Source: Candidatus Babelota bacterium
GTDB taxonomy: Bacteria > Babelota > Babeliae > Babelales > RVW-14
DNA length: 64,000 nucleotides
Direction of reading: 5' to 3'
NCBI GenBank assembly: GCA_013289515.1
Contig: JABCZU010000005.1
Span: 5,424-69,423, forward strand
Every line of letters begins with the position of its first letter. Position 1 is the first letter of the stretch. The notes under the pieces were generated by a model. It made no database searches. It was not told the origin of the DNA and worked only from the letters and a program-made list of their open reading frames with translations. Below, piece after piece: positions 37,742 to 62,974 of this stretch. The translations under genes and the position numbers were made by a program.

Positions 37742-40700
37742 CTAATTACGCATACCTTGTGGCGAAATCGTAAATATCCCAGCACTATTAGTCCCATAAA
37801 TCAACCCAGTCGCCGGATCATCCTTGGTTATTCGGTCATTCGCGGATAAGGAGGTAAACATGGCCGGCGTAAGGCTGGCTGGATTAGTAATTGGCTGCTT
37901 GGCCATGCTATCAAAGCTATTAAGCAGGGTGCGGCCCCCAGCACTATTAACAAACACCGTGCTGTAGGTTAATGCCGGTACTGTATTCAATAACAAGCGC
38001 ACTAGACCAAATACAGTGGTTTGTATAGGACGCAGGAACAGGAAGTTTTGAACATACCCAACCAGCGCGCTGCCAGCCAGACCTACCCGCCCATTACCAA
38101 TAAGCTCGGCGCCAATAGTACTAAAGTTAAATGGTGCATTAGCTCTATTGTTGCCAATACTCAGCAGCCCCTGTTGATTTAAGAAGAAGAAACCACCATC
38201 TTCAAATGATAATTTCTGTAAAAGGCTATTCTGAGGGACGCCTTTATTCGCGTTAATCTCCAAGACCCCTTGTTGACCAATAATGCCAACGCCCTGGTTA
38301 TGGAACTCTATATTAAAAGTTCCTTGGCTGAAGGATACAAATCCTTGTACTGGACTGGTTGGATTAGCCGGATTTTGGTTTACGGCATCAACTTTCAGCC
38401 GCGCATCTCTATCAACCACCATCGTTATTGCATCAGCTGAACTGCCTCCCAGAACAAGCTGTTGTCCTCCCTCGACAGAGATGAGCGCACCGGTATCAAT
38501 GAGCACCATTCCCTGTCCGGTGATAGAAGCGGTAGCCGGCGCTATTGCTGGTACTGTTGCGTTGTTGGTCAAACGAACTTTAGCTCTATCGGTCGCAGCT
38601 ACGGTGGCAGAGGCGTTGGTTCCGGCCCCGCCAAGCTTAATGGTAAGGCCATTTTGCAACCACACCGTACCATTACCCTGCCACTGCAAGAGCGCACCGG
38701 CTGGGATGGTTATTGGCGATGCCCCTGCTGTCATGATAACCATGGCTCCTTGGGCCTGCTTATCAAAGGTAATAAAGAGCTGGGCCCCTGGGTTAAAATT
38801 AAGTTGGCCATTGAAAGTGAACGTATTGGTAATCACAAGCTGATTATTTGTGCCATTAATATAAATAGTATCATTCGCCTTCAGCGTTGTTGGCGTTGAT
38901 CCTTGGTACACCGTGGCGTTGCCCATCAAATATAATTGCAACGTATTAACAGGATCAATATCAAAATTAGTAATTGACCCATTTGATACTTCAATGCCTC
39001 CACTTGCGTCATTAATTACCTGAGAGCCGGTCAGCACTCGTGTCTTAATATTTGTTGGCGGCAGGGGAAAATCTCTTGTTACCATATCATTATCTAGATA
39101 GTCACCACTACGCTTTTTACCCTGCTGCTTAGGTGGCCTGTGCTGTACACTGGCCTTTGGCTTATTAGCGGATGGCTTAGTAGCAAGCGGTTTATTTACA
39201 ATCGGCTTGCTCTGAGCATCTTTATTATATTCACGTTGTTTTAATTTTTGCTGAGCAAGGAAGGCGGCCTCCTGCCTTTTGCGCATAACTTCAAAGGCAT
39301 TGGTGGGGCGTTTTTTGAGCTGTTGCGGCTGTCTGATGACAAATGATGAATCAATAGCATTTGGAATATTGAGTGCAGTCAACGAAACACCGGCATTTAC
39401 TACCAAGTTGGCGGCCAACTGTTTTACCGGGAAGTTCTGAATCTGTATGTTTTGTCCACCAATCACCGCGTTAAGGTCAGTCACAAAGGCATTGGAGCCT
39501 AGATTGTTGACTGCTACCGCATAATTATCAAAAACAAGGCTGCTATACGCAATGCTAGACCCACCAACCAGCAGTAGATTATCACCAAAATTGACCGTTG
39601 GTGTACCTGAGACCGGCAACGTGCTTAGGTTAAGGGAGATATCTAACTGACTGTCAAATAATGCGCTATAGCCAATCAGCCCACTGAGTGTTAATTGATC
39701 ATTACGTAGCCGCAACGTATTATTTACAGCTTCAACAAAGAAGCTCATATCGGTATCAACATCAATATCTACAATGCTCTCACCGGTCAATGCCATGGCG
39801 CCCGTAAATATGCCGCCCGGCACAGCAACGCTTGCTACCGCAACACTTTGCAACCCTGTAAATTCTATATTTTCCAAGGCGATGGTACCCAGGCCAAGAT
39901 TGAAGGTTTTAATAATATTACCGGCCGAATCAACAATTGGCTGGATACTAACCCGCTTTTGAGCCCCTTCGCCAGTGAGGGTAAAGACGTTTGGCGTGTT
40001 TTGATCACCAAGTACTTGGATGGCATCCCCTGTTAATGAAATATCATCAATCAACTGAAAATCAACCCTAGGACCAATCAATAGTGAACTACCAGCTCCA
40101 AAGTCAAAGGTAAGCCCAGTAAGGCCGGCAAAGGTGATATTTTCTATCTCAAATATTACCCCCGGCTTTAAAAGAAGCTGCGGGTAAACAACATCACTAA
40201 ACATTATGGTCGCGCCCTGACCATTCAAGAGTAAATTATGATCAATTATAATCTGCTCACCTGGCTGCACCGTAAAACCATTGGTTATTGTCAATGTAGT
40301 TGATAGCGGAATCGTCCCAGTAAGCTCACCGCCACGCATAACTTGAATCGCACTGCTCAGTATTCTGAATCCATATAAAAACGCATTACTCGTATCACGT
40401 GCCAAAAATAAGAATGCCGCACTATTGATACGTGATAAAAATACTATTGCTTCGCTATTTACTCTATCACCGTACAACAATGCATTACTATTGGTGCGAT
40501 CACCAAATAACAGCGCATTACTGTTATTGCGGTCACCAAAAAGGAGTGCGTTACTGGTTATTCTGCTGTTATACGCAAAGGCTGCGCTTAAGACTCTATT
40601 TAGATACAGCAATGTATTACTGTTGTTCTTGGTTAGGAACAACTTGGCATTACTATCTGTCCTCTCATTAAACAGCAGCGCATTGCTATTTATGCGATCC

Positions 40701-43700
40701 CCAAATAACAGAGCGTTACTGTTGTTTTTAGTAAGAAATAACAATGTATTGCTCAATATCCTTAGGTTTTTATTTGTTGATTGGCTATTATTAATAATTG
40801 CAAACAACAAGGCATTACTGTTTATACGATTCAGGTACAGGAGTGCATTACTATTCACTCGATTATTGTAGGCTGCCGTCTCACTATTTATACGATCTCC
40901 AAAAAGAAGCGCATTGCTTGTTATCCTTGTTGCATACAATAATGCATTGCTATTGTATCGCACTAAGAAATTCAATGATTCACTGCTTATACGCGATAAA
41001 AATACTATTGCCTCACTATTTACTCTATCACCGTACAACAATGCATTACTATTGATGCGATCCCCAAATAAGAGAGTGTTGCTGTTTATACGGTCACCAA
41101 ACAATAACGCATTACTGGTGATTCGATTGTTGTATAGAATCGTGTTACTAAGCGTTCTGTTTACATAAAGAGCGTAACTACTAAAGGTACGATTTCCCGA
41201 TAGTACTGCGTTACTGGTCACCCTACTATTATATGCAAGGGCTGCACTTAATACTCTGTTCAGATACAATAACGTATTACTATTATTTTTGGTCAGGAAC
41301 AATTTGGCATTGCTGTCTGTTCTTTCGTTAAATAGCAACGCATTACTATTGATGCGATCACCAAATAACAAAGCATTGCTATTATTTTTAGTAAGAAATA
41401 ACAATGTATTGCTCAATATCCTTAGGTTTTTATTTGTTGATTGGCTATTATTAATAATTGCAAACAATAAGGCATTACTGTTTATACGATTCAGATACAG
41501 GAGTGCATTACTATTATTGGTCGTTAGGCGCAGCATCGCATTGCTGTTTATACGATCTCCAAACAAGAGAGCGTTACTGTTAATGCGATCACCAAATAAC
41601 AAGGCATTGCTTAACGTTCTATCAATGTACAGTGCGTAACTGCTACTTGTGCGATTGGCTGATAATATTGCATTGCTCGTGATTCTTGTTGCAAACAGTA
41701 ATGCATTACTGTTGTAACGTGCCAAGTATAATAATGATTCACTGGCTGTACGCGACAAGAACACTATCGCTTCACTATTGACTCTGTCACCGTACAATAA
41801 GGCGTTGCTGTTAATGCGATCACCAAAGAGCAGTGCATTGCTATTGACACGATTCAAGTACAACAAGGCATTACTGTTGTTGGTCGTTAGGCGCAGCATC
41901 GCATTGCTGTTTATACGATCTCCAAACAAGAGAGCGTTACTGTTAATGCGATCACCAAATAACAAGGCATTGCTCAAGGTTCGATCAATGTACAATGCAT
42001 AACTACTACTTGTACGATTAGCTGACAATATTGCATTGCTGGTCACCCTATTGTTGTACAAGATTGTATTGCTCAGCGTCCTATTCACATAGAGCTCAAA
42101 GCTACTGGTTGTTCTCTTTAAGGATAGCAGCGCATTGCTGGTGATTCTATTGTTATAGAGAATTGTCTCGCTATTTACTCTGTCGCCGTACAATAAGGCA
42201 TTACTGTTTATACGATTCAGGTACAGGAGTGCATTACTATTATTGGTCGTTAAGCGCAACATTGCGTTACTGTTGATACGATCTCCAAGCAAAAGCGCAT
42301 TGCTATTGATGCGATCACCGAACAACAAGGCATTGCTTAACGTTCTATCAATGTACAGTGCATAACTGCTACTTGTACGATTGGCTGATAATATTGCGTT
42401 GCTGGTCGTTCTATTGTTGAATAGTATCGTGTTACTCAATGTTCTGTTGCTGTAAAGCCCATAACTGCTAAATGTGCGATTGGCTGATAACAACGCCTCA
42501 CTAGTAATTCTATTGTTGTAGAGGATCGTGTTGCTAAGCGTTCGATTTACATACAAAGCATAACTACTGCTTGTCCTATTTGCCGATAAAATCGCATTGC
42601 TCAACGTCCTATTTACATATAACGCGTAGCTACTACTTGTGCGATTGGCCGATAGTAACGCTTCACTGGTTATACGATTATTGTACAGGATCGTCTCACT
42701 ATTTACTCTGTAACCGTACAATAATGCGTTGCTGTTTACACGGTTCAGGTACAGCAAGGCATTGCTGTTATTAGTGGTTAGGCGCAGCATGGCATTGCTA
42801 TTTATGCGATCTCCAAAGAGCAGCGCGTTACTGGTGATTCTTGTTGCATACAGTAATGCATTACTTGTAAAACGTGCTAAGGATGACAATGCCGCACTGC
42901 TGATACGCGATAAGAATACTATTGCTTCACTATTTACCCTGTCACCATACAAAAGCGCATTACTGTTTATTCTATCACCAAAAAGAAGTGCATTGCTTGT
43001 AATTCTATTATTGTATAGGATCGTATTACTCAATGTTCTATTAACGTACAGCTCGTAGCTACTCGTTGTTCGCTTTAAGGACAGTAAAGCATTGCTGGTC
43101 ACTCGGTTGTTGTAGAGGATCGTCTCACTGTTGACTCTATCGCCGAAGAGCAGCGCGTTGCTGTTTATGCGGTCACCAAAGAGCAGTGCATTGCTCAAGG
43201 TCCTGTCTACGTACAATGCATAACTGCTACTTGTTCGATTGGCTGATAATATTGCATTACTTGTAACACGGTTATTGTACAAGATCGTGTTACTCAGCGT
43301 CCTATTCACATAAAGCTCGTAGCTACTCGTTGTTCTCTTCAATGACAGTAAGGCGTTGCTGTTATACCGTGCCAGAAACAATAATGCTTCACTATCTATA
43401 CGAGATAGGAACACTATCGCCTCGCTGTTTACCCTATCTCCATACAGCAATGCATTGCTATTTACACGGTTCAAGTACAACAAGGCGTTACTGTTGTTGG
43501 TCGTTAGGCGCAACATCGCATTGCTGTTGATACGATCTCCAAACAAAAGCGCGTTACTGTTAATTCTATCACCAAATAACAAGGCATTGCTCAAGGTTCG
43601 ATCAATGTACAATGCATAACTGCTCGTTGTACGGTTTGCTGATAATATCGCATTGCTTGTAACACGGTTATTGTACAGGATCGTGTTGCTCAAGGTTCTA

Positions 43701-45367
43701 TTTACATACAACGCATAACTGCTACTTGTTCGATTAGCTGACAATATCGCGTTACTGGTAATTCTATTGTTATACAAAATTGTATTGCTAAGCGTCCTAT
43801 TAACATATAATGCATAGCTACTGCTTGTCCTATTGGCTGATAATATCGCTTCACTCGTTACACGATTATTATACAAGATCGTATTACTAAGCGTCCTATT
43901 CACGTACAATGCGTAGCTGCTAGATGTACGATTGGCAGATAACAGTGCCTCGCTGGTAACTCTATTGTTGTACAAGATCGTGTTACTCAACGTTCTATTC
44001 ACATATAACGCGTAGCTACTACTTGTACGATTGGCTGATAATATCGCATTACTGGTGGTTCTATTATTATAGAGGATCGTATTGCTATTCTCGCGATCAC
44101 CAAAGAGCAATGCCGCGCTGTTTATTCTATCACCAAATAAAAGTGCATTACTATTTATGCGATCGCCAAAGAGCAAGGCATTACTATTTGTTCTAGCTAA
44201 ATATAATAGTGTATTACTATTAGCTGTCACTGCCGCCGCATTAGTCATGGCATTAATCATGCCACCATTTAAATACGTTATAAATTTGGTACCCGCATCT
44301 GCTGCGGCGATACTGACGGTGGGCTGAATATTTTTAGCATCAGGATATTGGGTTGGATCATACCATAAGGTGACGCCATCAACCGTCAACGATGAGCTGT
44401 TGCTTACGGTCAGCACATGATTTTTTGTTACAATGGTTGATTCACCGTTGACATAAATACCACCTATAGTAAATGTGTATGAATTGGCCATTTCAATTTC
44501 AACACGCGTAAGACGCAATTGCGATGAAACACTTTCAAAAACAAAGCCCCCAAGTCCTAGTCCTTTAATCTTAATATCCTTCAAGTGCAGCGTAGTATTG
44601 GGTCTAATCCAAATAGAACCACGTTGCGTCAGATCAAGAATATTACCGTTGCCTAGGATGGTAGGCTGATTGCCAGATGTTAATGTACCAAAGGTCCACA
44701 TACCTGAGAGCTTGGTGTTACCCCGTAACTGCAAATCACTTGCATCGTTCCATAAAAGTGTATGCGTAAGTTTTAAAGAACCACTTGCCAGGGGAGCGCC
44801 AAAGGCAAACATCCTACCCGCTGTATCAACGGCACCCGATCCGGTAAGCGTTGCATCTGGCAACAGCCGAAGATCATCATCAAGAATAATGGTACCGCCA
44901 TTCATAACAATGGAACCGATATCGCCCGTAAGGGCCAAGGTAAGGCTACTGAGATTAGACGTAAGCGATAACGGACTGGTGAGCGTAAAATCTGGCGTGC
45001 CTTCTAGGCGGTTTCCGCCACGGATCACCGTAATTTGGTCTGAAAAGACACCATCAGATATACGAAAAATTTGATTAGTGTTAAGCACAATTGGCTGTGC
45101 CGACGTTGCGGCGTACGTGCCGGTAAAATAGGCGGGGTTGCCATTAATAGTCAGCATACCACCATTGAAAGCAATGGGCTGCTGTCCTGCCACTTTACCT
45201 GTTTGTGCAAGCGTCCCATTCCAGCTTGGAATGCTCGTATTAACGGTAAATTTTGCAGGCCCGACATTAATAGTAGAGTCTTGGCCAGAAAAATTAAGAC
45301 CAGCAAAACAGGTTATTTGAGCGAAGAGCACAATGATCAGATACATCAAACATGTATGATAACTCAT
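37742..45367 (-). CDS. Giant repeat protein 1 (2541 aa): signal peptide, conserved N-domain, about 118 copies of an 11-aa repeat, unique ~860 aa C-region
   Basis: Uninterrupted 7.6 kb ORF. The N-terminus is homologous to the other three giant proteins. Confidence 0.85.
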   Translation of the reverse strand: MSYHTCLMYLIIVLFAQITCFAGLNFSGQDSTINVGPAKFTVNTSIPSWNGTLAQTGKVAGQQPIAFNGGMLTINGNPAYFTGTYAATSAQPIVLNTNQIFRISDGVFSDQITVIRGGNRLEGTPDFTLTSPLSLTSNLSSLTLALTGDIGSIVMNGGTIILDDDLRLLPDATLTGSGAVDTAGRMFAFGAPLASGSLKLTHTLLWNDASDLQLRGNTKLSGMWTFGTLTSGNQPTILGNGNILDLTQRGSIWIRPNTTLHLKDIKIKGLGLGGFVFESVSSQLRLTRVEIEMANSYTFTIGGIYVNGESTIVTKNHVLTVSNSSSLTVDGVTLWYDPTQYPDAKNIQPTVSIAAADAGTKFITYLNGGMINAMTNAAAVTANSNTLLYLARTNSNALLFGDRINSNALLFGDRINSAALLFGDRENSNTILYNNRTTSNAILSANRTSSSYALYVNRTLSNTILYNNRVTSEALLSANRTSSSYALYVNRTLSNTILYNNRVTSEAILSANRTSSSYALYVNRTLSNTILYNNRITSNAILSANRTSSSYALYVNRTLSNTILYNNRVTSNAILSANRTTSSYALYIDRTLSNALLFGDRINSNALLFGDRINSNAMLRLTTNNSNALLYLNRVNSNALLYGDRVNSEAIVFLSRIDSEALLFLARYNSNALLSLKRTTSSYELYVNRTLSNTILYNNRVTSNAILSANRTSSSYALYVDRTLSNALLFGDRINSNALLFGDRVNSETILYNNRVTSNALLSLKRTTSSYELYVNRTLSNTILYNNRITSNALLFGDRINSNALLYGDRVNSEAIVFLSRISSAALSSLARFTSNALLYATRITSNALLFGDRINSNAMLRLTTNNSNALLYLNRVNSNALLYGYRVNSETILYNNRITSEALLSANRTSSSYALYVNRTLSNAILSANRTSSSYALYVNRTLSNTILYNNRITSEALLSANRTFSSYGLYSNRTLSNTILFNNRTTSNAILSANRTSSSYALYIDRTLSNALLFGDRINSNALLLGDRINSNAMLRLTTNNSNALLYLNRINSNALLYGDRVNSETILYNNRITSNALLSLKRTTSSFELYVNRTLSNTILYNNRVTSNAILSANRTSSSYALYIDRTLSNALLFGDRINSNALLFGDRINSNAMLRLTTNNSNALLYLNRVNSNALLFGDRINSNALLYGDRVNSEAIVFLSRTASESLLYLARYNSNALLFATRITSNAILSANRTSSSYALYIDRTLSNALLFGDRINSNALLFGDRINSNAMLRLTTNNSNALLYLNRINSNALLFAIINNSQSTNKNLRILSNTLLFLTKNNSNALLFGDRINSNALLFNERTDSNAKLFLTKNNSNTLLYLNRVLSAALAYNSRVTSNAVLSGNRTFSSYALYVNRTLSNTILYNNRITSNALLFGDRINSNTLLFGDRINSNALLYGDRVNSEAIVFLSRISSESLNFLVRYNSNALLYATRITSNALLFGDRINSETAAYNNRVNSNALLYLNRINSNALLFAIINNSQSTNKNLRILSNTLLFLTKNNSNALLFGDRINSNALLFNERTDSNAKLFLTKNNSNTLLYLNRVLSAAFAYNSRITSNALLFGDRNNSNALLFGDRTNSNALLYGDRVNSEAIVFLSRINSAAFLFLARDTSNAFLYGFRILSSAIQVMRGGELTGTIPLSTTLTITNGFTVQPGEQIIIDHNLLLNGQGATIMFSDVVYPQLLLKPGVIFEIENITFAGLTGLTFDFGAGSSLLIGPRVDFQLIDDISLTGDAIQVLGDQNTPNVFTLTGEGAQKRVSIQPIVDSAGNIIKTFNLGLGTIALENIEFTGLQSVAVASVAVPGGIFTGAMALTGESIVDIDVDTDMSFFVEAVNNTLRLRNDQLTLSGLIGYSALFDSQLDISLNLSTLPVSGTPTVNFGDNLLLVGGSSIAYSSLVFDNYAVAVNNLGSNAFVTDLNAVIGGQNIQIQNFPVKQLAANLVVNAGVSLTALNIPNAIDSSFVIRQPQQLKKRPTNAFEVMRKRQEAAFLAQQKLKQREYNKDAQSKPIVNKPLATKPSANKPKASVQHRPPKQQGKKRSGDYLDNDMVTRDFPLPPTNIKTRVLTGSQVINDASGGIEVSNGSITNFDIDPVNTLQLYLMGNATVYQGSTPTTLKANDTIYINGTNNQLVITNTFTFNGQLNFNPGAQLFITFDKQAQGAMVIMTAGASPITIPAGALLQWQGNGTVWLQNGLTIKLGGAGTNASATVAATDRAKVRLTNNATVPAIAPATASITGQGMVLIDTGALISVEGGQQLVLGGSSADAITMVVDRDARLKVDAVNQNPANPTSPVQGFVSFSQGTFNIEFHNQGVGIIGQQGVLEINANKGVPQNSLLQKLSFEDGGFFFLNQQGLLSIGNNRANAPFNFSTIGAELIGNGRVGLAGSALVGYVQNFLFLRPIQTTVFGLVRLLLNTVPALTYSTVFVNSAGGRTLLNSFDSMAKQPITNPASLTPAMFTSLSANDRITKDDPATGLIYGTNSAGIFTISPQGMRN
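40345..44225 (-). repeat. 33 nt (11 aa) coding tandem repeat array in giant protein 1
   Basis: Units such as ALLFGDRINSN, TILYNNRVTSN, AILSANRTSSSY and ALYVNRTLSN. Boundaries are approximate. Confidence 0.85.
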
Positions 45368-45447
45368 CTCTCCCCTACCTCTTTTCCGTTATACATAAGC
45401 ACTTATCGACGCAAGAATAACGTATTGCCCAACACCAAAACAAGTAA

Positions 45448-46500
45448 TCATTGATATTTTACCTGTCCATACATATAAACCGTCGCACCACCCTTAACTT
45501 TAGTGATTAAACTTGAATTCAAAAGTAATGCTTCGCCACTATTTCTGCCTGTGCTTGTCATCGTAACCTGGTCATCCAAGAGCAGCGTTCCTGTTTGTAA
45601 TTGTAGGCCGGTATTGGTAGAAAAAAGTGTACAGCCACTTAAATAAAGATTTGATGTTTGATCGGTCATGAAAAGTAAGTTGCTATTGGCTCTACGCGGG
45701 GCATAACTAAATGTTGTATCATGATCAAACATAAGGGTGCTCAGGGAATTAATAGTGCTGCCAACCCCCGTGGTATAGGCAAACGTTGTCGTCCCCGTAA
45801 ATACAACGTCCTTATCAAATAAAATGGATCCACGGGAGAAGGTATAATTAGCAGAACATCCGAAAACAACATTTCTCAGTACCAAAGAGCCGCTGTCCAT
45901 CAAACAGCGTATATTGGTTCTACCCACATTATTGATAGTTATATCTTCTAAAATAAGCTGCGAATTGGGCCTAACTATCAATGACGAACCTTCACTCAGG
46001 GTTAACTTTCTGCCGGGGCCACTAATTTTACAATTATCAGTAAATTGTAAAACCCCATAAATTCTTGCATCGGTATCAAAAAGTAAATTCGCTGCATCAA
46101 AATTAAATGAAAATGACATGACAAATTCTGTTGCTGTCGGACCAAATTCAAGTGTGTGAGTATTTGCCAAAATCGTGCCACTTCCTGTAAAACGTATTGG
46201 TTGGGCAAGCTTCAAATCTTCTAATAGTGATAATACGCCCCCATTTAAGTTTATGGCACTCGAGACTGGAAAAAAGGCGTTATACGTGCACGTGGTCGTA
46301 TTTGCTGCCAGAGTAAACCCATTCGCAAGGTATGCAAATCCTAAAATAGTATTTACTTGTCCATTAGGAAAGGCTGCTGTTGGATTGAGAGACACATTAT
46401 TATTAGCACCGACCGTTAACCCATGGGCTACAGGTGACAGCACATATGCTACCATTATTACTATAAAACCTATCTTGCTCATTGCCTGTGGTACCATCAA
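45448..46500 (-). CDS. Partner protein 1 (~350 aa, signal peptide), homologous to the C-terminal module of the giant proteins
   Basis: Motifs LANGFTLAANTTTCTY..LNGG.LSL, NIRCLMDSGS, NYTFSRGSILFD, FSYAPR and C-terminal YMYGQVKYQ. The start is probably the ATG at 46497. Confidence 0.8.
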   Translation of the reverse strand: MMVPQAMSKIGFIVIMVAYVLSPVAHGLTVGANNNVSLNPTAAFPNGQVNTILGFAYLANGFTLAANTTTCTYNAFFPVSSAINLNGGVLSLLEDLKLAQPIRFTGSGTILANTHTLEFGPTATEFVMSFSFNFDAANLLFDTDARIYGVLQFTDNCKISGPGRKLTLSEGSSLIVRPNSQLILEDITINNVGRTNIRCLMDSGSLVLRNVVFGCSANYTFSRGSILFDKDVVFTGTTTFAYTTGVGSTINSLSTLMFDHDTTFSYAPRRANSNLLFMTDQTSNLYLSGCTLFSTNTGLQLQTGTLLLDDQVTMTSTGRNSGEALLLNSSLITKVKGGATVYMYGQVKYQ

Positions 46501-46519
46501 TTGCTCCCGCCCTCTATGA

Positions 46520-53643: not shown

Positions 53644-53650
53644 GCTGTCA

Positions 53651-56600
53651 TTAAAATTGACTTACAGAGCCGTTAAATAACAAAGGATTAATTAAACCAG
53701 CCTGCGTTGAAAGGTACAGTACTGCGGATCCTAAATTCATCGTCTGATCAAGTAATAAGTCTCCACCAGGATTGATTACCATGCTTGAATACTGACTCCC
53801 AACGACCAGTGAGGGCGCATTAACGTTTTGATAGATTAGGTAACCTCTATCCATCTCTAAAATCGCTCCAGGTTTAAGCACAAGTATCTGATCATGACTT
53901 GCATTATTATCACCAAGAATAAAACCAGTCGTCTGGTTGCTGCCGTTAAAAAATCCGGTGGTTGTCACAGCACCTTCAACAAAAATCTGCGCCAAACCGT
54001 CCACGGACAAATTGCCATTAATAAGCTGCATGCCATATTTTGTAGCATGAATCGTAGCATTATTCATATATAATTGTGATGAATTATCCGCAAAGGTCAG
54101 GAGCTTCGGCCTATTGCCCTGAGGATCATAACTAAAGGTGAATGTTGGCTCCAAATATAGGGAGGCATTATGCGCAATGGTCGATGAAAGTGATGTATGA
54201 AAGGCAAAGGTGTACGTGCCATACATATCCAAAAATGTATTAATCTGAAACGACCCACGACTAAAGGTAAAGTTATTATCCTGTATCCACGTAATAGCAT
54301 CAAAAATAATTGAAGCAGAATTATCCATACAGGAGATATTATTACTACCAACACCGCGTATGGTTGCATTTCTCACATTAAGCGAAGCATTATGACCGAT
54401 AACAACATTTGCGTTAGGGCCAAGGATGATTGTACACCCTTGGGCATCAAGCAAACAGGCGCCGGTAAATTTTAGGGTACTATTGATAGTTAAGTCATTA
54501 TTAAGATACATGTTAGCGGTATTAAATATAAGCGGGGAAGTACCTGGAAAGGTACTTACTGTAGGTGCCAAATCAATACTATAATTATTGGCGTTAATCA
54601 CCCCGCCTGTTTGGAAATAGCCGCCATTGCCCAAAACAAGATCCGACCCTAACTGTAATGACCCGCCGTGTAGTGCTATAGGCCCTGCAACTGGATAAAC
54701 TGACTGAAAGGTTACTGTCGTGGTGTTACTGTGTAGGCTAAAACCACTTGGCAGGTAGTTAAATGGCGTGATTACATTGCTTGAGCCACCAATAAAACTA
54801 TTGTTCGTTGATGTATGCGCGGAGGACAAGAATTCATTACTGAAGATGCGAGCGTTATACAATATCGTATTGCTCAGCGCTCTTATAAGTACCGGATTAG
54901 CCGCCGCCGCTACAAAGACAATGGCTGCGCTTGCAATTCTATTATTAAACAGGATTGTATTACTCAGTGTTCTATTCACATACAAGGCATAACTACTACT
55001 CGTACGATTTGCCGATAGCAAGGCTTCGCTCGTTATTCTATTGTTATAGAGTATCGTGTTGCTTAACGTTCTATTTACATATAATGCGTAACTGCTTGCT
55101 GTACGCTTTAACGATATGATCGCATTACTGTTATTCGTTGATAACCGTAACATTGCATTGCTGTTAACGCGATCACCAAATAACAATGCATTACTGTTAT
55201 TTTTTGTCAGGAACAACAGGGCATTGCTTGTCGTTCTTCCAAAGCTTCCGCCATTCAGAGTGGCACTGCTGAGCACACGCATGTCATAGGCCAGTGTGTT
55301 ACTAGTGATTCTGTTGTTGTACAAGATCGTGTTACTCAGAGTTCTGTTTACATACAACCCATAGCTGCTACTTGTTCGATTGGCCGACAATATCGCTTCG
55401 CTCGTTATTCTATTCACATACAATGCGTAACTACTTGCTGTGCGCTTTAGTGATATGATGGCGTTACTGTTATTCGTTGATAATCGAAGCATTGCATTAC
55501 TGTTGACTCGATTCAGGAACAACAGGGCACTACTATTGATGCGATTACCAAATAACAATGCCGAGCTTAGTGTCCTATCAACATACAACGCGTAACTACT
55601 GCTCGTTCGATTTGCCGATAACAAGGCCTCGCTCGTTATACGATTGTTATATAAAATCGTATTGCTTAACGTTCTATTCACATACAAAGCATAACTGCTT
55701 GCTGTGCGTTTCAATGATAGAATGGCATTACTGTTATTTGTTGATAACCGTAGCATTGCATTACTATTAACCCGGTTCAGATACAATAATGCGTTACTAT
55801 TGATGCGACTGCCAAACAATAACGCAGTACTCAACGTTCTATCAACATACAATGCATAGCTGCTGCTTGTACGATTTGCCGATAACAACGCGTTACTGTT
55901 TGTCCTATTGCCATATAATGATGCATTACTCAGCGTTCTATTCACATACAAAGCATAGCTACTACTGGTGCGATTCGCTGATAGCAGCGCTTCACTGGTG
56001 ATGCGATTGTTATAGAGTATCGTGTTGCTTAACGTTCTATTCACATATAATGCATAACTGCTTGCTGTACGCTTTAATGATATGATGGCATTACTGTTAT
56101 TTGTTGATAAGCGTAACATTGCGTTACTATTCACACGTGCCGCAAATAACAGCGCATTGCTATTTATGCGATTACCAAAGAGCAACGCATTACTCAGTGA
56201 CCTATCCGCATACAATGCATAACTGCTATGGGTACGATTGGCTGATAGCAATGCGTTACTATTCGTGCGATTACCAAATAGCGAAGCGTTACTCAGCGTC
56301 CTATTCACGTATAATGCATAACTGCTACTCGTACGATTTGCCGATAATATCGCAGTACTATTTGTCCTATTCACATACAACGCATAGCTACTACTTGTTC
56401 TATTTGCCGACAATATCGCATTACTCAACGTTCTATCAACATACAACGCATAAGAGCTATGAGTACGATTCGCTGACAGTATTGCAGTACTATTTGTACG
56501 ATTCACATACAAGCTATAACTACTAAAGGTTCTATTTGCTGATAATATCGCATTACTATTTGCTACCACAAGGCTAAGTGGTGCCATTCCTTGAATTGCC

Positions 56601-57712
56601 CCGCCGTTCAAGTAGGTGATTGATGTGGTGCCAATATTGGCCGCCGCAGCAGAAACCACAGGACGAATATTTCTATTGTCATTATATTGGGTTGGATCGT
56701 ACCAAAGCGTCGTCCCATCTACGGTCAGGGTGGCAGCATTAGTCAAGGTGAGCAGATGATTTTTTGTTACAATTACTGATTCACCCTCAATATAAATACC
56801 GCCTATTGTAACGGTATAAGAATTGGCCATTTCAATTTCAACGTGAGAAAGGTGAATATTGGCAGTCTGATCTTGAAAAACAAAGCCGCCACGACCCAGC
56901 CCTTTAATTTTAATATTGGCCAGTCTCAGTGATACGCCGCGTGAGATATAAATAGATCCCCCTTGTGTTAAATCAAGGGTTTTGTCATGACCAACAATAC
57001 GCGCGTATGCCGAGTCATTTTTGGTAAATGTCCATTGACCCGATAAAGCAAGATTGCCTTCGATCAAAATTTTATCAGCATCACACAGTAAAAGCGTATG
57101 CGTTAGTGCTAAACTTTGTGTTGCATAAGGGCCTCCAAAAAGTAGATTTCTACCATCCAAAGAAACGTATCCAGAACCTTGTAACGAGGCATCTTGCGCT
57201 AACTCAAGATCACCATCAAGAAGTATATTTCCCCCATTCATTACTATGTTACCCATGCGACCTGCAAGGCCAAGCGTCACAAAACTCAAATTATGCGCTA
57301 GAGTAAGAGGAGCTGACACCAATCGGTCAAACAGCGCACTGCCATCTAATCTGTTTCCCCCTCGTATAACAACAATCGGGGTGAACAATTGACCCTCTTC
57401 TGCACGCAATAACTGGTTGGTGGTGAGCACAAACGGCGATGTAGCTCCAGGGGCATATATAAATGAGCCTTCAGCATCGGCATTACCAATACTAAGCATC
57501 CCACCGTTAAAGGTAATTGGTTGCGTTCCGACTATCGCTCCTACCTGCGTCAGCGTGCCATTCCACGCTGGAATTGCAGTATTAATAGCAAATTTTGCAG
57601 GACCAACATTAATCGTCGAGCTTGCTCCTGAAAAATTTAATCCTGCTGGTAAGCATGGTGCCTCAGCAAGGAGCATTATAATAAAATAGAGCCAGCACAC
57701 GAACAAACCCAT
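53651..57712 (-). CDS. Giant repeat protein 3 (1353 aa)
   Basis: Same architecture as giant protein 2. Ends ..NGSVSQF. Confidence 0.85.
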   Translation of the reverse strand: MGLFVCWLYFIIMLLAEAPCLPAGLNFSGASSTINVGPAKFAINTAIPAWNGTLTQVGAIVGTQPITFNGGMLSIGNADAEGSFIYAPGATSPFVLTTNQLLRAEEGQLFTPIVVIRGGNRLDGSALFDRLVSAPLTLAHNLSFVTLGLAGRMGNIVMNGGNILLDGDLELAQDASLQGSGYVSLDGRNLLFGGPYATQSLALTHTLLLCDADKILIEGNLALSGQWTFTKNDSAYARIVGHDKTLDLTQGGSIYISRGVSLRLANIKIKGLGRGGFVFQDQTANIHLSHVEIEMANSYTVTIGGIYIEGESVIVTKNHLLTLTNAATLTVDGTTLWYDPTQYNDNRNIRPVVSAAAANIGTTSITYLNGGAIQGMAPLSLVVANSNAILSANRTFSSYSLYVNRTNSTAILSANRTHSSYALYVDRTLSNAILSANRTSSSYALYVNRTNSTAILSANRTSSSYALYVNRTLSNASLFGNRTNSNALLSANRTHSSYALYADRSLSNALLFGNRINSNALLFAARVNSNAMLRLSTNNSNAIISLKRTASSYALYVNRTLSNTILYNNRITSEALLSANRTSSSYALYVNRTLSNASLYGNRTNSNALLSANRTSSSYALYVDRTLSTALLFGSRINSNALLYLNRVNSNAMLRLSTNNSNAILSLKRTASSYALYVNRTLSNTILYNNRITSEALLSANRTSSSYALYVDRTLSSALLFGNRINSSALLFLNRVNSNAMLRLSTNNSNAIISLKRTASSYALYVNRITSEAILSANRTSSSYGLYVNRTLSNTILYNNRITSNTLAYDMRVLSSATLNGGSFGRTTSNALLFLTKNNSNALLFGDRVNSNAMLRLSTNNSNAIISLKRTASSYALYVNRTLSNTILYNNRITSEALLSANRTSSSYALYVNRTLSNTILFNNRIASAAIVFVAAAANPVLIRALSNTILYNARIFSNEFLSSAHTSTNNSFIGGSSNVITPFNYLPSGFSLHSNTTTVTFQSVYPVAGPIALHGGSLQLGSDLVLGNGGYFQTGGVINANNYSIDLAPTVSTFPGTSPLIFNTANMYLNNDLTINSTLKFTGACLLDAQGCTIILGPNANVVIGHNASLNVRNATIRGVGSNNISCMDNSASIIFDAITWIQDNNFTFSRGSFQINTFLDMYGTYTFAFHTSLSSTIAHNASLYLEPTFTFSYDPQGNRPKLLTFADNSSQLYMNNATIHATKYGMQLINGNLSVDGLAQIFVEGAVTTTGFFNGSNQTTGFILGDNNASHDQILVLKPGAILEMDRGYLIYQNVNAPSLVVGSQYSSMVINPGGDLLLDQTMNLGSAVLYLSTQAGLINPLLFNGSVSQF
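54830..56565 (-). repeat. 33 nt coding repeat array in giant protein 3 (about 52 units)
   Basis: Same repeat family. Boundaries are approximate. Confidence 0.85.
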
Positions 57713-57726
57713 CTATTCCCTTTGTT

Positions 57727-58788
57727 CTATTGATATTTTATTCGTCCATACATGTAAACGGTCGAACCGCCCATCACCTTGGTAGTAAGGCTGGAATTAA
57801 GCAGAATCGACTCGCCGGTATTTCTGCCTGTGCTTGTCATCGTAACCTGATCATCTAATAACAACGTTCCTGTTTGCAACTGTAATCCTGTATACGTAGA
57901 AAAAAGCGTGCAACCGCTTAAATAAAGGCACGATGTGTTATCAATCATATTCAGTAAATTTCCTCGCGCATTACGCGGGGCATAACTAAAGGTAGTATCG
58001 TGATCAAACATAAGCGTACTTAGCGTATTAATCGTACTGCCAATCCCCGAGGTATACGCAAACGTTGTGGTACCGGTAAATACAACGTCTTTATCAAATA
58101 AAATTGATCCACGAGAGAAGGTATAATTTGCACTGCATGCCAAAATAACATTGCGCAGAATCAGTGATCCATTATCCATCAAACAACGTACATTGGTTGT
58201 GCCTAAATTGCTAAGCGTTACATCTTCTATAATAAGCTGCGAATTTGGCCTCACCACAAGGGCTGAACCGTTCTCGAGTGTTAGTACTTTACCCGTCGTT
58301 CCACGAATTTTACAATTTTGTGCAAATTGTAAGATGCCATAAAGCCTTGTATTGGTATCAAACTGTAGTATGGTTGCATTAAAATTCAATGAGGCCGTTA
58401 GCACAAAGTCAGTTGTGGTTTCACCAAGAGTAAAGCTATTGCCATTACCCAAAATAGTGCCGCCCGTGGGAAAGCGTATCGGTTGAACACATATAAAATC
58501 TTGTCCAAGTGACAACACCCCACCATTCAAGCTTACCGCGCTAGAGACTGGAAAATAGCTACCAAAAGTACATGTATCGGTGTTGGCTGCAAAATTGAAT
58601 CCATTATCCAGAGCACCAAAGGCGAGTATGGCATTAAGCCCACCCCCAAGCGCTGCTGTCGGTTGAATCGACACTGTAGTGTTTGATCCCACGTTTGCCG
58701 CTTTGACCAAGCCGGCTATTGCTATCAGGATAATAAAATAACAGATATAACGAGTAATAATGCGCATTACCAATACTCCCACAAACAA
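57727..58788 (-). CDS. Partner protein 3 (353 aa)
   Basis: Paralog of the other partners. The TTG start aligns with the ATG start of partner 2 (MFVGVLVM vs MFVGILLM). Confidence 0.8.
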   Translation of the reverse strand: MFVGVLVMRIITRYICYFIILIAIAGLVKAANVGSNTTVSIQPTAALGGGLNAILAFGALDNGFNFAANTDTCTFGSYFPVSSAVSLNGGVLSLGQDFICVQPIRFPTGGTILGNGNSFTLGETTTDFVLTASLNFNATILQFDTNTRLYGILQFAQNCKIRGTTGKVLTLENGSALVVRPNSQLIIEDVTLSNLGTTNVRCLMDNGSLILRNVILACSANYTFSRGSILFDKDVVFTGTTTFAYTSGIGSTINTLSTLMFDHDTTFSYAPRNARGNLLNMIDNTSCLYLSGCTLFSTYTGLQLQTGTLLLDDQVTMTSTGRNTGESILLNSSLTTKVMGGSTVYMYGRIKYQ

Positions 58789-58795
58789 ATTATGC

Positions 58796-61700
58796 TCAAA
58801 ACTGGCTCACAGAACCGTTAAGGTACTGTTGATTTATTAAGCCACCACTGGTAGAAAGATTCAGTATCCCGGGCGACAAATTCATTGGCTGTTCAAGTAA
58901 TAAGTCTGCACCCGGATTTATTGTTATATTTGAATATTGACTGCGAGCAAATAACGAGCTTGCATTAACATTTTGATAGATTAAATACCCTCTATCCATC
59001 TCTAACGTAGCACCGAAATTCAGCACAAGTATCTGATCATTACCTGCATTATTACCAAGAACAAAGCCGGCCGTCTGACTACTACCAACGTTCAACAATC
59101 CAGTTACAGCCTGAGCCCCTTCAACAAAAATTTGCGCTAATCCATCTACTAATAAGGTACCGTTAGTGAGCTGCATGCCATATTTTGTAGCATGGATCGT
59201 GGCGTTATTCATATATAACTGTGATGAATTATTTAAAAAGGTAAGCAGCTGTGGTCTATTACCTTGTGGGTCATAACTAAAGGTAAATGCCTGATCTAAA
59301 GAAAGTGTTGAGTTAGAATGAATCGTTGATGCAAGCGATGTATTAAAGGCAAAGGTATACGAACCTATCATATCAAAAGAATGAACTACGCCAAAAGACC
59401 CATTACTAAAGGTAAAATTAGCATCCTGAATCCACGCCGTTGTATCAAAAATTATGGATCCTGAATTATCTTGGCAACAAATATTGCTACCACCAACTTT
59501 ATTTAAAAATATATTTTTAAAGCGAAGTGTAGCGTTTTGTTTTACCGTGATGCTGCCAGCAGTTGCTAGCGATAACGTATTGCCTTGACCATCAATAATA
59601 CACGATCCTTCTACAAACAGTGGTGCCGCCAGATTCGTAGCATCATTTAATTTTATAAATGCTCCATTCCCATTAAACAACATCGTGCTTGTCCATGTAG
59701 TGGTACCTAGATTAAGATTAAGCGTGTGAGAGGCAAGTTGCAGAAACCCTCCCCCAGTAATAACTATGCCGTACCCAAGGGTTAAATCATTGCCCAGCGT
59801 TATGGTGCCGCCATTTAAACTAATGTTACTCAGGATACTGCCGCCTACGTCAAGGGTAGCTGCTGGTGACAGACCGCTAAAAATTATAGGACCAGAAATG
59901 TCGCCTATAGATGCTATCGTATTCCCCGTCCCTTCAATTAATGAGGCTAGCGGATAGGTACCAAAGGTAGCCTTCACGGTGCCACCGTTGAAAAGTAATA
60001 AGGTTTGAGCAGTAAAACGAGTAGCCGTTACCGTAAATTCTGCTGTCGGTAACGTAACATTAGCATTTGTATAATACATGGATGTCCCGGGTGCCAGGAT
60101 TGAGCCGCCACTACCCAGTTCTGAAACATTAATGTTGGAATAGTTCGTGCTGTGCTTATCGTAAATGACACTATTGCCACTTTGTACATAGTTGACAGGA
60201 ACATCATGAGAGGCAAAGGTGCTTGATCGCGTAACATTACTCACCAAATAACCGCTTGCTAAATTAATAGCTGCATCCGGATACAAATAGATGTAGGGAT
60301 CATTGGCACTATTGCCATTACCAACGAGAAGACCATTACTTGTGCTAGTAGAATTAATATCAATATACACTTCTCGATCAATAACAACCGCACCATTAAG
60401 AAGTGACATCCCGGATGAGGTAACGGTAAATGTACAATTCTCAAGTTTTAACTTGGCGGTCTGATCGGTAAAATAAAGCGGCTCGCGCGAGAAAATACCG
60501 CCAGTTCGCCCAATAGTTACGTTAATAACATCAGAAAGGTACCACATGGACTCAGTATCAATAGTACTGGTCAATGAAGATGCATAGACAAACGTATACG
60601 GACCAACAAAATGAACCTGGTTATCAAATTCTATAGAGCCCTGCGTAAACGTATAGTTTCCTGTCTGGGTCCATTGCATATTATCTAAAATGAGCTTGGC
60701 ACTATTATCAAGACACTGGATGCGGCCGCTCGTTACGCTATTGAGATCAACATTGCGTAAACGCAAGCTGGCATTATGCCCCACAACGATGCTAGCATTA
60801 CTGCCCAGTGATATGCTGCAACCACGCGCATCAAGCACGCAGTTGCCCGTAAATTTAGCAGTCCCAGACAAGGTGATATCGTTGTTAAGATAAATGTTTG
60901 CATTATTCAACACCATATTATTTGTCATGGTCATGCCGGTGATCGTTGAAGAGAAATCCACCGCATGGTTGTTGGCAATGATCGTCCCGCAAGTCCCCCA
61001 ATTGGTCACGTTCTGGAAAATAAGATCGGTACCTAAATACAGTTGTCCACCATGCAATGATACAAAGCCTGATACAGGAAAGACTGAGCCAAAGGTACAG
61101 GTGGTATTAGAATCCTGCAGAACAAAGCCTTTTTCGAAAAATTGGAACGGGAAAATAATGTTAGTTGATACCCCGGTCGGAAATATGGTAAATGGCTGCA
61201 CCGCAGGGGCTGTGACAATCGCATTACTATTTACACGGTTACCAAATAATAACGCATTACTTGTTGTTCTATTGTTGTACAAGATCGTATTGCTCAGTGT
61301 TCTATTCACATACAATGCATAACTACTACTCGTACGATTTGCCGATAGTATTGCGTTACTATTTATTCTGTAGTTATACAAGATTGTATTGCTGAGCGTT
61401 CTGTTAACATACAACTCATAGCTGCTTGTCGTACGCTTTAATGATAATAAGGCGTTACTAGCCGTTCTATTGTTATACAGGTCAGCATTGCTTAATGTTC
61501 TATTCACATACAATGCATAGCTGCTACTTGTCCTATTGGCCGATAGTATCGCGTTACTTGTTGTTCTAGCATTGTACAAAATTGTGTTACTATTTGTTCT
61601 ATTCACATACAAGGCATAGCTGCTACTCGTGCGATTTGCGGACAAGATCGCATTACTTGTTGTTCTGGCATTATATAAAATTGTATTGCTCAACGTCCTA

Positions 61701-62974
61701 TTCACATATAAGGCATAGCTACTATGTGTACGGTTGGCTGATAATAAAGCATTGCTCGTTATTCTAGCATTATACAAAATCGTATTACTATTGTTTTTAT
61801 TGAGATAGAGCAAGGTATTACTGTTGGCTGCAGCAAGCACCAGCGGAGTCATGCCCTGGACAGCGCCACCATTTGAATAGGTAACAAATTTATTATTAAC
61901 ATTACTTGCAGCATTTTGAAGCGGTTGAATTGCGTAATCTGTGACATATTGCGTGGTATCATACCATAGCGTAACCCCATCAACCGTCAGTGATGCATTG
62001 GTGCTCATCGTCAATACATGATTTTTTGTAACAATGGTTGACTCACCATTAACGACAATGCCGCCAGTCGTAACGGTATAGGAGTTAGCCATCTCAATTT
62101 CAACGCGACTGAGACGCAATTGCGATGTGTGATCTTCAAAGACAAAACCCCCTCGACCCAAGCCTTTTATTTTTACATCGACCAAGCGTAGCATTGTATT
62201 AGCTTTAATAAAAATTGAGCTGCCGCGTGATAAATCAAGTGTATGCCCATTGCCAGAAATGGTAGGATCACAATTTGCATTCGCTAGAGTGCCAAATCGC
62301 CACATGCCATACAAAACCACATTACCATTTAATTGTAATTGGCTAGCATCATTCCATAGCAGCGTATGCGTCAATAGTAATGCACCGCTTGAAAGTCCAG
62401 CACCAAAGATAAATCTTCTTCCTGCTGTATCTACCGTGCCTGATCCAGTCAGTGTAGCATCTGGCAATAAATCAAGATCATTATCAAGAATAATCGTTCC
62501 ACCATTCATGGCAATTGAGCCCATATTACCATTAATCGCCAGCGTAACGCTGCTTAAATTGTGGGCCAATGTTAGTGGTGTAGCCAAAGAAAAATCGGGA
62601 GTACCTTCTAGCCTATTGCCATTGCGAATGACAACAACAGCACTAGAAAATAGGCCATCTGACACGCGCAAGAGCTGATTAGTATTCAGAACAAATGGCG
62701 TTGCCGCATTACCAGCATACAGACAGTTTGCCCATGCAGGATTATTATTGATAGTGACGATGCCATTGGTAAAGGTAATCGGCTGGCCAACGACAGCCCC
62801 TGTTTGTGCAAGCGTTCCATTCCAACCGGTAATAGCAGTATTCAGAATTAACTTACCAGAGCCAACAGTAACCGTTGAACCCTGGTGCAAAAAATTTAAC
62901 CCGGCAACAGCACTACAGGATGCCTGATAACAGAGGAAGAAAGCCACATATACAAGGCTAGTACAATAACTCAT
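58796..62974 (-). CDS. Giant repeat protein 4 (1392 aa) with a short repeat array and two partner-like modules
   Basis: Conserved N-domain, about 19 repeat units, then two copies of the C..D..GC / C.DNS / NFTF / FSYDPQGNR module. Ends ..NGSVSQF. Confidence 0.85.
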   Translation of the reverse strand: MSYCTSLVYVAFFLCYQASCSAVAGLNFLHQGSTVTVGSGKLILNTAITGWNGTLAQTGAVVGQPITFTNGIVTINNNPAWANCLYAGNAATPFVLNTNQLLRVSDGLFSSAVVVIRNGNRLEGTPDFSLATPLTLAHNLSSVTLAINGNMGSIAMNGGTIILDNDLDLLPDATLTGSGTVDTAGRRFIFGAGLSSGALLLTHTLLWNDASQLQLNGNVVLYGMWRFGTLANANCDPTISGNGHTLDLSRGSSIFIKANTMLRLVDVKIKGLGRGGFVFEDHTSQLRLSRVEIEMANSYTVTTGGIVVNGESTIVTKNHVLTMSTNASLTVDGVTLWYDTTQYVTDYAIQPLQNAASNVNNKFVTYSNGGAVQGMTPLVLAAANSNTLLYLNKNNSNTILYNARITSNALLSANRTHSSYALYVNRTLSNTILYNARTTSNAILSANRTSSSYALYVNRTNSNTILYNARTTSNAILSANRTSSSYALYVNRTLSNADLYNNRTASNALLSLKRTTSSYELYVNRTLSNTILYNYRINSNAILSANRTSSSYALYVNRTLSNTILYNNRTTSNALLFGNRVNSNAIVTAPAVQPFTIFPTGVSTNIIFPFQFFEKGFVLQDSNTTCTFGSVFPVSGFVSLHGGQLYLGTDLIFQNVTNWGTCGTIIANNHAVDFSSTITGMTMTNNMVLNNANIYLNNDITLSGTAKFTGNCVLDARGCSISLGSNASIVVGHNASLRLRNVDLNSVTSGRIQCLDNSAKLILDNMQWTQTGNYTFTQGSIEFDNQVHFVGPYTFVYASSLTSTIDTESMWYLSDVINVTIGRTGGIFSREPLYFTDQTAKLKLENCTFTVTSSGMSLLNGAVVIDREVYIDINSTSTSNGLLVGNGNSANDPYIYLYPDAAINLASGYLVSNVTRSSTFASHDVPVNYVQSGNSVIYDKHSTNYSNINVSELGSGGSILAPGTSMYYTNANVTLPTAEFTVTATRFTAQTLLLFNGGTVKATFGTYPLASLIEGTGNTIASIGDISGPIIFSGLSPAATLDVGGSILSNISLNGGTITLGNDLTLGYGIVITGGGFLQLASHTLNLNLGTTTWTSTMLFNGNGAFIKLNDATNLAAPLFVEGSCIIDGQGNTLSLATAGSITVKQNATLRFKNIFLNKVGGSNICCQDNSGSIIFDTTAWIQDANFTFSNGSFGVVHSFDMIGSYTFAFNTSLASTIHSNSTLSLDQAFTFSYDPQGNRPQLLTFLNNSSQLYMNNATIHATKYGMQLTNGTLLVDGLAQIFVEGAQAVTGLLNVGSSQTAGFVLGNNAGNDQILVLNFGATLEMDRGYLIYQNVNASSLFARSQYSNITINPGADLLLEQPMNLSPGILNLSTSGGLINQQYLNGSVSQF
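61215..61828 (-). repeat. 33 nt coding repeat array in giant protein 4 (about 19 units)
   Basis: Same repeat family. Boundaries are approximate. Confidence 0.8.

Follow-up and report, generated by a model that had tools for sequence, protein, structure and literature searches.

An 11-residue repeat of about 300 copies in four giant proteins of a Dependentiae bacterium, possibly forming a hendecad coiled-coil stalk between predicted beta-helix domains

We analysed a 64-kb window (64,000 nucleotides of contig JABCZU010000005.1, assigned to Candidatus Babelota bacterium), in which four giant proteins, here called G1 to G4, carry long arrays of an 11-residue repeat. The genes of this locus run on the minus strand from about position 63938 down to 34679. 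The giants alternate with four small open reading frames (ORFs) of 277-354 amino acids (aa), and the gaps between them are mostly 7-19 nt, with wider gaps of about 80 and about 130 nt between small ORFs and giants at the G1 and G4 ends. Two further genes, for a 448-aa protein and an outer-membrane-like 553-aa protein, follow downstream of G1 (Table 1).

All four giants begin with an N-terminal hydrophobic signal sequence and share one architecture, in which the signal peptide leads into a predicted beta-helix module, then the repeat rod, and then either one or more further beta-helix modules or, in G1, a tail of another type. By blastp, the region of about 360 aa past the signal peptide, the regions of about 300 aa after the arrays and the small interleaved ORFs are mutually homologous, so that the small ORFs are stand-alone versions of the same module.

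Table 1. Features of the giant-protein locus, of related loci and of the rest of the window. Positions are those of the window, except for the related loci (L numbers), which have their own coordinates; beta-helix modules are predicted.
Feature	Position	Strand	Details
G1 ORF	37742-45367	minus	2541 aa
G1 signal peptide and N-terminal beta-helix module	44213-45367	minus	alignment of N-terminal parts
G1 repeat array	40352-44212	minus	aa 386-1672; 117 uninterrupted 11-residue units
G1 C-terminal tail	37742-40351	minus	869 aa; different domain type, Lys/Pro-rich segment
Stand-alone beta-helix module ORF	45448-46500	minus	350 aa, with signal peptide
G2 ORF	46520-52567	minus	2015 aa
G2 N-terminal equivalent	51407-52567	minus	alignment
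G2 repeat array	47675-51406	minus	aa 388-1631; ~112 units (108 11-mers and four 14-mers)
G2 C-terminal beta-helix module	46520-47674	minus	one copy; blastp domain map
Stand-alone module paralogue	52579-53643	minus	
G3 ORF	53651-57712	minus	1353 aa
G3 N-terminal equivalent	56552-57712	minus	alignment
G3 repeat array	~54836-56551	minus	aa 388-959; ~50 units including one 14-mer
G3 C-terminal beta-helix module	53651-54835	minus	one copy; blastp domain map
Stand-alone module paralogue	57727-58788	minus	
G4 ORF	58796-62974	minus	1392 aa
G4 N-terminal equivalent	61817-62974	minus	alignment
G4 repeat array	61223-61816	minus	aa 387-584; 18 units
G4 C-terminal part	58796-61222	minus	two more copies of the ~300-aa beta-helix module; blastp domain map
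Stand-alone module paralogue	63105-63938	minus	
448-aa protein	36340-37686	minus	membrane segments and coiled coil; directly downstream of G1
553-aa outer-membrane-like protein	34679-36340	minus	C-terminus ...LEALW
Outer-membrane-like protein region, L001	2165-4460		
Outer-membrane-like protein region, L005	9208-11631		
Outer-membrane-like protein region, L008	8059-9870		
Outer-membrane-like protein region, L011	13647-15437		
Outer-membrane-like protein region, L018	11801-13627		
GyrA	24734-27328		
Two paralogous YhcG/DUF1016 PDDEXK nucleases	20123-21289, 31047-32240		
AAA_14/DUF4143 ATPase	21706-22899		
HEPN protein	29140-29637		
Schlafen AlbA_2 protein	10286-11467		
Tyrosine recombinase	8183-9124		
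Cluster of paralogous proteins	27542-33419		370-418 aa
Ankyrin protein	17903-18787		
Heparinase II/III-like protein	12567-14618		N and C domains

The period of the repeat is 11 residues. In each giant, self-identity has its maxima at lags 11, 22, 33 and onward (0.13-0.32), against about 0.09-0.11 at the best lags that are not multiples of 11. A strict 11-residue parse totals about 297 units over the four arrays; the original prediction had placed some 300 copies in the four giants, at coordinates that agree with ours to within a few bases. The 117 units of G1 show zero register shifts, and the only insertions in the arrays of the window are of +3 residues; the four 14-mers of the G2 array are of the AILNGGSAGRTNSN type. 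The final two or three units of the G3 array are degenerate. The repeat consensus is A-[LI]-L-[YFS]-x-[ND]-R-[TIV]-x-S-[NSE], and the logo of 248 cleanly parsed units reads, position by position, A/T/Y, L/I/A, L, Y/F/S, x, N/D, R, T/I/V, N/L/T/S, S, N/S/E. Within these units Leu3 is found in 225/248, Arg7 in 225/248 (91%) and Ser10 in 246/248 (99%). The G1 array (1287 residues) contains no proline and 2.6% glycine, and leucine, at 17%, is the most abundant residue of the repeat; array composition is otherwise marked by N (16.6%), S (13.7%) and T (8.1%), with little K (0.9%) or E (1.7%).

The units are also organised in larger blocks. A 33-aa super-repeat, TILYNNRVTSN-AILSANRTSSS-YALYVNRTLSN, is picked up by Tandem Repeats Finder in G1, G2 and G4 as 4-5.5 copies of a 99-nt period, and blocks of 8, 11 and about 12 units are duplicated too, with a DNA identity of 73-80%. 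This super-repeat had been predicted, although as an 11-mer combined with units of 12 and 10 residues. We retain the super-repeat and drop the 12+10 parse: AILSANRTSSS and YALYVNRTLSN are two 11-mers, and this 11+11 parse is preferred because Leu3, Arg7 and Ser10 then stay in register.

The repeat is real and strongly selected, and the selection is purifying and acts at the protein level. It acts on the peptide, because identical units come from nearly all-different DNA. Among the 23 copies of ALLFGDRINSN there are 21 distinct DNA spellings, averaging 7 differences in 33 nt, and among the 17 copies of YALYVNRTLSN every DNA sequence is different. Between random pairs of units, identity is 33% at the third codon position versus 58% at positions 1 and 2. 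This is what had been proposed from the sequence at the outset, namely an old repeat that is kept by selection on the protein. Leu3 is spelled by all six Leu codons and Arg7 by all six Arg codons. At Ser10 the codon is AGT or AGC in 246/246 units and never TCN (40352-44212, 48947-51406, 55265-56551 and 61223-61816). AGY and TCN codons are not joined by any single synonymous step, and their distribution here suggests that Ser10 was never allowed to change through a non-Ser intermediate.

The repeat matched no described family in the libraries that we searched, as had been predicted. A Pfam scan of the giants at E<=1 gave nothing real, only one summation artefact and sub-threshold noise. The artefact is PF24154 (Tis1_ImmP) on G1, which reaches 32.7 bits against a gathering cut-off of 27, with no single stretch of the protein passing; we rejected it as a sum over repeats. 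False positives of this kind could mis-annotate such repeat proteins. G3 (P0015) also carries a precomputed Pfam tag, PF28068.1, that could not be resolved in the copy of Pfam searched. Within the arrays, NCBIfam returned only matches far under cut-off. Those to fibrous proteins were confined to the coiled-coil proteins Scy and DivIVA/Wag31 (36-38 bits versus cut-offs of 1040 and 260); equally weak matches to a benzoate-CoA ligase and a methyltransferase look like chance. The Scy and Wag31 matches may be taken as a hint of coiled-coil-like periodicity and nothing more. PHROGs gave no match. Against PDB chains (phmmer and hmmsearch; the queries were the array of the window, a repeat profile built from 25 sequences and a relative rich in 14-mers), the best E values lay at 0.08-0.7 and belonged to chance hits on antibody frameworks, a propeller lectin and a deformylase, none of them related. 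A faint resemblance to the Hep_Hag repeats of trimeric autotransporter adhesin (TAA) heads, suggested earlier, did not hold up, as the Pfam scan found no TAA head, neck or anchor family at E<=1. In the literature searched on Dependentiae adhesins, repeats, surface and hendecads, we found no account of the repeat; a hendecad survey (J Struct Biol 215:108007) lay outside this coverage and may include it.

Obligate parasites of protists, the Dependentiae (TM6) are widespread and known almost wholly from metagenomes. The window points to them: its GyrA shares 73-83% identity with proteins that bear the names Candidatus Dependentiae, Babeliales or TM6, and it encodes several ankyrin-repeat proteins, which are typical of Dependentiae (PMC6561590, PMC4776705). 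Records that carry relatives of the repeat and of the N-terminal domain bear the labels TM6, Dependentiae or Babeliales, or are metagenome-assembled genomes (MAGs) labelled generically or otherwise, and the nearest N-terminal domain outside the window is 51% identical. Among 1.84 billion proteins, a repeat profile of 55 columns (five repeat units) matches 141 cluster representatives at E<=1e-3 and 67 at E<=1e-10. A scan of viral contigs found no relatives of the repeat family by sequence. Judged by these records, the family is apparently restricted to the phylum Dependentiae (TM6/Babeliales). In at least 7 of 18 related genome loci (L001, L002, L006, L010, L012, L014 and L015) the contig ends about 0.4-1.7 kb past the N-terminal module, inside the array. 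Assemblies thus break in the array, and the repeat family is therefore truncated in short-read MAGs and under-counted.

The relatives differ from the window proteins in two further respects. First, many relatives have Cys-Cys at unit positions 5-6, in 64/367 distinct foreign 11-mers (e.g. ALIACCKNNSN and ALLYCCRTTSN; P0024, P0025, P0026 and P0030 among others), whereas the window proteins have none there; these pairs could possibly be inter-chain disulfides or metal sites in the rod. Second, some relatives (L003 1754-9856, L004 1069-9528, P0017, P0018, P0020) are proteins of 1800-2800 aa in which many tandem beta-helix modules are fused to WD40/beta-propeller regions, while 11-mer units are few or a run of repeats was not detected. 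The beta-helix module is a widely reused building block in Dependentiae.

Several lines of evidence bear on what flanks and accompanies the arrays. In an AlphaFold model of G4 aa 1-960, aa ~30-340 are beta-rich with a predicted local distance difference test (pLDDT) score above 90, and aa 605-920 are beta-rich with pLDDT ~70-97, mostly above 85. Foldseek with this context model returned right-handed parallel beta-helix proteins only, at weak scores (best PDB E = 8e-3, TM ~0.1-0.3): the autotransporter passengers Hbp, Ag43, EspC, Hap and TibA, PL6 lyases, pectin methylesterases, and viral fibre or tailspike-like proteins. The flanking modules are thus predicted to be right-handed parallel beta-helices. 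The G1 tail is common to relatives, where it is found adjoining an outer-membrane-like gene.

Outer-membrane barrels typically end in F, and the 553-aa protein and its homologues all have an aromatic residue at the C-terminus. Homologues of the 553-aa protein (550-610 aa) stand beside genes of the family in 5 of the 18 related loci, and all of them end in F. At the place of the 448-aa gene, these five loci (L001, L005, L008, L011, L018) have either a short ORF with a transmembrane segment and a K/E-rich coiled coil or a K/E-rich N-terminal segment of the barrel ORF. The 553-aa protein has no match in Pfam, NCBIfam or PDB. The conserved outer-membrane-like neighbour lends support, short of proof, to an envelope or surface location of the giants, and the 553-aa and 448-aa proteins are possible export or anchoring partners.

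As for the repeat itself, the reading that we prefer is a hendecad alpha-helical coiled-coil stalk between beta-helix domains, which possibly attaches to a host; we do not regard this as settled and would give it an even chance. If the anchor of each unit must return to the same face of a helix, unit lengths are expected to form a comb. To obtain a unit-length spectrum, we took the distinct units between successive SN[ATS] anchors in 93 relatives from outside the window. The counts, which are not phylogenetically independent and to that extent caution against leaning on them, are high at 11 (367), 14 (178), 18-19 (69), 21-22 (75), 25 (26) and 28 (19), with troughs at 12-13 (7), 16 (5), 20 (6), 23-24 (9), 26 (1) and 30 (0). 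The strongest periodic component of the histogram is 3.5 residues, and it persists when lengths 11, 14, 22 and 33 are left out (0/2000 random sets reach it). Unit lengths are thus quantised in helical turns, by increments of +3, +4 and +7. The 14-mers, A-I-[VI]-x-L-x-x-x-[VI]-R-T-N-S-N, have I2, L5, V9 and N12 at heptad a/d spacing, and 21-mers in relatives have heptad-type positions 2, 5, 9, 12, 16 and 19. From these patterns, the core seam would lie at unit positions 2 (L/I), 5/6 and 9 (N/L/T/S), corresponding to hendecad a, d/e and h; in the window arrays the residues along it are L/I, L/G/N/V/A, N/D and N/L/T/S. The unit types keep no phase modulo 2 or 3, and the array has, on that account, no distinct "sides".

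AlphaFold, which the original prediction had named as the way to tell a beta-solenoid from a hendecad coiled coil, gave a divided answer. All structure prediction was by monomer AlphaFold2. With a clean, in-register alignment of the first 22 units of G1, two of five models show a single helix over residues 2-240, with mean pLDDT 85 and 83. Several observations weigh against the coiled coil. The other three models of the isolated array are poor (pLDDT 55, 38 and 23), and in the full-context run (G4 aa 1-960) the array stays at pLDDT 23-33, without secondary structure. In hydrophobicity, the 11 and 5.5 harmonics equal or exceed the 3.67 harmonic, and each unit is hydrophobic over positions 1-5 and polar over positions 6-11; this block-wise polarity, with a 3.67 harmonic that is not dominant, means that the sequence is not that of a classical amphipathic coiled coil. 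N, S and T, which form helices poorly, are plentiful, the residues that vary least (Leu3, Arg7, Ser10) lie off the core seam, and some of the longer units in relatives contain GG or P. We give the negative AlphaFold result little weight because such coiled coils are known to be mis-predicted: hendecad coiled coils are hard targets for AlphaFold (PMC11676326), and polar-core coiled coils are confidently scored as disordered (PMC13580157).

The same data can be read as a beta-structured fibre. Here the 11-mer would be a short strand (A-L-L-Y-x) followed by an Asn/Ser-rich turn, and the array would be either a beta-solenoid that continues the flanking helices or an intertwined triple beta-helix. 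The predicted beta-helices on either side fit this, as do the succession of a hydrophobic block of five residues and a polar block of six with much N, S, T, G and D, the presence of a 33-aa super-repeat and the lack of helix in the AlphaFold context run; a monomer prediction, moreover, cannot model an intertwined trimer. However, neither AlphaFold run put stacked strands in the array, and the length variants fall on a 3.5-residue comb rather than at arbitrary loop lengths, with heptad a/d spacing in the 14- and 21-mers. The absence of a fixed side among unit types also argues against a solenoid, while a triple beta-helix, in which all faces are equivalent, would account for it as well. Proline is absent, glycine is low, and a ladder of the invariant Arg at 4.8 A spacing would be electrostatically costly. 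To our knowledge, 11 residues are too short for one solenoid coil without disulfides. Taken together, we consider a beta fibre unlikely.

A second alternative is that the array has hardly any fold: a flexible, mostly unstructured Asn/Ser/Thr-rich spacer, possibly heavily O- or N-glycosylated on the invariant Ser or at N-x-S/T, in the manner of a mucin-type brush. The very low pLDDT of the context model and of three of the five isolated-array models is what such a spacer would give, and the polar composition, the invariance of Ser10 and the 118 N-x-S/T sites over the four arrays are compatible with it. Against this, coiled coils with polar cores can be mistaken for disorder, as noted above (PMC13580157), and selection works position by position on hydrophobic and charged residues: Leu3 and Arg7 are kept while all six codons are used, and identical peptides come from different DNA. 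The register is strict across 117 units, and leucine makes up a sixth or so of the residues. Glycosylation fares no better. Sequons had been said to recur in most units, and N-glycosylation had been raised as a speculative possibility; in fact N-x-S/T occurs at only 0.32-0.67 per unit and is not clearly above composition-preserving shuffles (38 vs 46.6+/-5.4 in G1; 31 vs 22.5+/-3.7, modestly above, in G3). The sequon Asn (N6) alternates with D, T, S and K and is not a conserved position, the PglB-type sequon D/E-x-N-x-S/T occurs once in 3301 array residues, and no glycosyltransferase gene is encoded in the 64-kb window. We reject N-glycosylation as the principle behind the repeat; a modification of the invariant Ser10 is possible. 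On balance we find a disordered spacer highly improbable.

Even if the repeat is helical, its helices might not make a simple coiled coil of two to four strands but associate side by side along two or three conserved seams, so as to build a helical tube, a sheet or a surface lattice, and the giants would then be building blocks of a coat rather than stalks. An 11/3 helical net does put the conserved residues on stripes (2-5-9; 3-7-10 with 6; 1-4-8-11), each with hydrophobic members, hydrophobic and polar rings alternate along the axis, and the Cys-Cys pairs of relatives could cross-link chains. There is, however, no direct evidence for lateral assembly; a copy number that ranges from 18 to 117 among paralogues fits a spacer better than a lattice, and a trimeric or tetrameric hendecad coiled coil has most of its positions in or beside the core in any case. 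We think a lattice very unlikely. Somewhat less remote, though still doubtful in our view, is a bolder combination, in which the array is a kind of fibre not seen before (a helix ringed alternately by hydrophobic and Asn/Ser/Arg residues and conserved on three seams, built into a tube of several helices, a rod whose polar core is filled with ions or water, or an alpha/beta fibre) and is the long-sought apparatus with which Dependentiae capture their hosts.

Overall, our best reading of the repeat is as the stalk of beta-helix fibre proteins and as a new hendecad coiled-coil family, one without an entry in the family and structure libraries that we searched. On the coiled-coil reading, the giants would be Sec-exported fibrous proteins of a Dependentiae (TM6/Babeliales) bacterium. 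Each 11-mer would span three turns of one uninterrupted alpha-helix (11/3 = 3.67 residues per turn), and the helix would join like chains into a nearly straight, parallel hendecad coiled coil, for which a parallel trimer is the natural guess by analogy. In the core, Asn, Thr, Ser or Leu at position 9 would be followed by the invariant Ser10. Formally this resembles the polar layer that adhesin stalks use most often, N@d with T@e next to it (PMC13580157). Leu3, Arg7, Y/F4, I/V/T8 and Ala1 would flank the seam, which leaves hardly any position free of constraint. As a stiff spacer, the rod would measure about 191 nm in G1, 185 nm in G2, 85 nm in G3 and 29 nm in G4 and would hold the distal beta-helix module away from the cell, and the four paralogues would then offer four reach lengths. 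The small module proteins could be accessory or alternative tips. We propose that the system serves contact with, or adhesion to, the protist host.

The genomic papers on Dependentiae consulted here treat ankyrin proteins, type IV pili and ATP/ADP translocases and describe no dedicated adhesin (PMC6561590, PMC4776705). The 29-kb operon in the window, with its length-graded fibre proteins and conserved outer-membrane partner, is a concrete candidate for host contact that can be tested. If an unconventional fibre and host capture were both true, this apparatus of up to about 190 nm would be the first identified attachment organelle of this uncultured parasitic phylum, and the array the longest near-perfect hendecad array in coiled-coil biology. 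A register-perfect, Asn/Ser-rich hendecad of 117 units is also a natural test case for predictors of structure and disorder (PMC11676326, PMC13580157).

Elsewhere in the window, nuclease-, HEPN- and Schlafen-type genes, together with an ATPase and a tyrosine recombinase (Table 1), are scattered among housekeeping genes; these are kinds often linked to defence or mobile elements. Three members of the cluster of paralogous proteins have C-terminal ankyrin-like similarity, and with the further ankyrin protein they make up a set typical of the host-manipulation repertoires of Dependentiae. The heparinase II/III-like protein may have host or prey glycans as its substrates, the bacterium being presumed to live inside protists as a parasite.

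We compared the giants with four groups of known proteins. The 11-mers of apolipoproteins, alpha-synuclein, perilipin and group-3 LEA proteins share an 11-residue period that corresponds to three helical turns. Those repeats, however, are Lys/Glu-rich and form amphipathic helices induced by lipid or desiccation, whereas the repeat of the giants is poor in both residues, is not dominated by the 3.67 harmonic and has no Pfam match, and the giants are exported and flanked by beta-helix domains. With the beta-helix adhesin passengers (Hbp, Ag43, Hap, TibA, Fap2) the giants have in common flanking modules that are predicted to be parallel beta-helices, and with viral fibres whose beta-helix domains are joined to a fibrous trimeric linker (a Klosneuvirus collagen-repeat protein, S74-peptidase phage tail fibres) a plan of beta-helix, long fibre and beta-helix. 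Yet their linker is neither collagen nor a known repeat, the Foldseek scores are weak and, unlike classical autotransporters and chlamydial Pmp adhesins, they have no C-terminal barrel or Pmp family in Pfam.

Hendecad (11/3) coiled coils are right-handed or straight, the tetrabrachion stalk being an example. The giants resemble them in carrying an 11-residue period over what would be long rods in extracellular fibrous proteins and in being difficult for AlphaFold and coiled-coil predictors (PMC11676326), while their motif, R-x-N-S-N-A-L-L-Y, is unrelated to Pfam, NCBIfam and PDB entries. The comparison with TAA stalks is one of analogy, not of membership. The giants contain no Hep_Hag, HIM, neck, YadA stalk or YadA anchor domain (Pfam, E<=1), share no sequence similarity with any solved stalk, end in a predicted beta-helix module (by blastp homology and AlphaFold) rather than a membrane barrel, belong to the phylum Dependentiae and have an array that is almost purely hendecad over more than 1200 residues. 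What they would share with TAAs is a long repetitive stalk of a surface fibre in a diderm, their own surface location being the more tentative part, with a stalk length that differs between paralogues and adhesive beta-structure domains at the ends. As a coiled coil, the giants would also have Asn-rich layers followed by a hydroxyl residue (N-S in the giants, N-T in TAAs), and they mix heptad- and hendecad-type units, as the Saa stalk does (PMC13580157).

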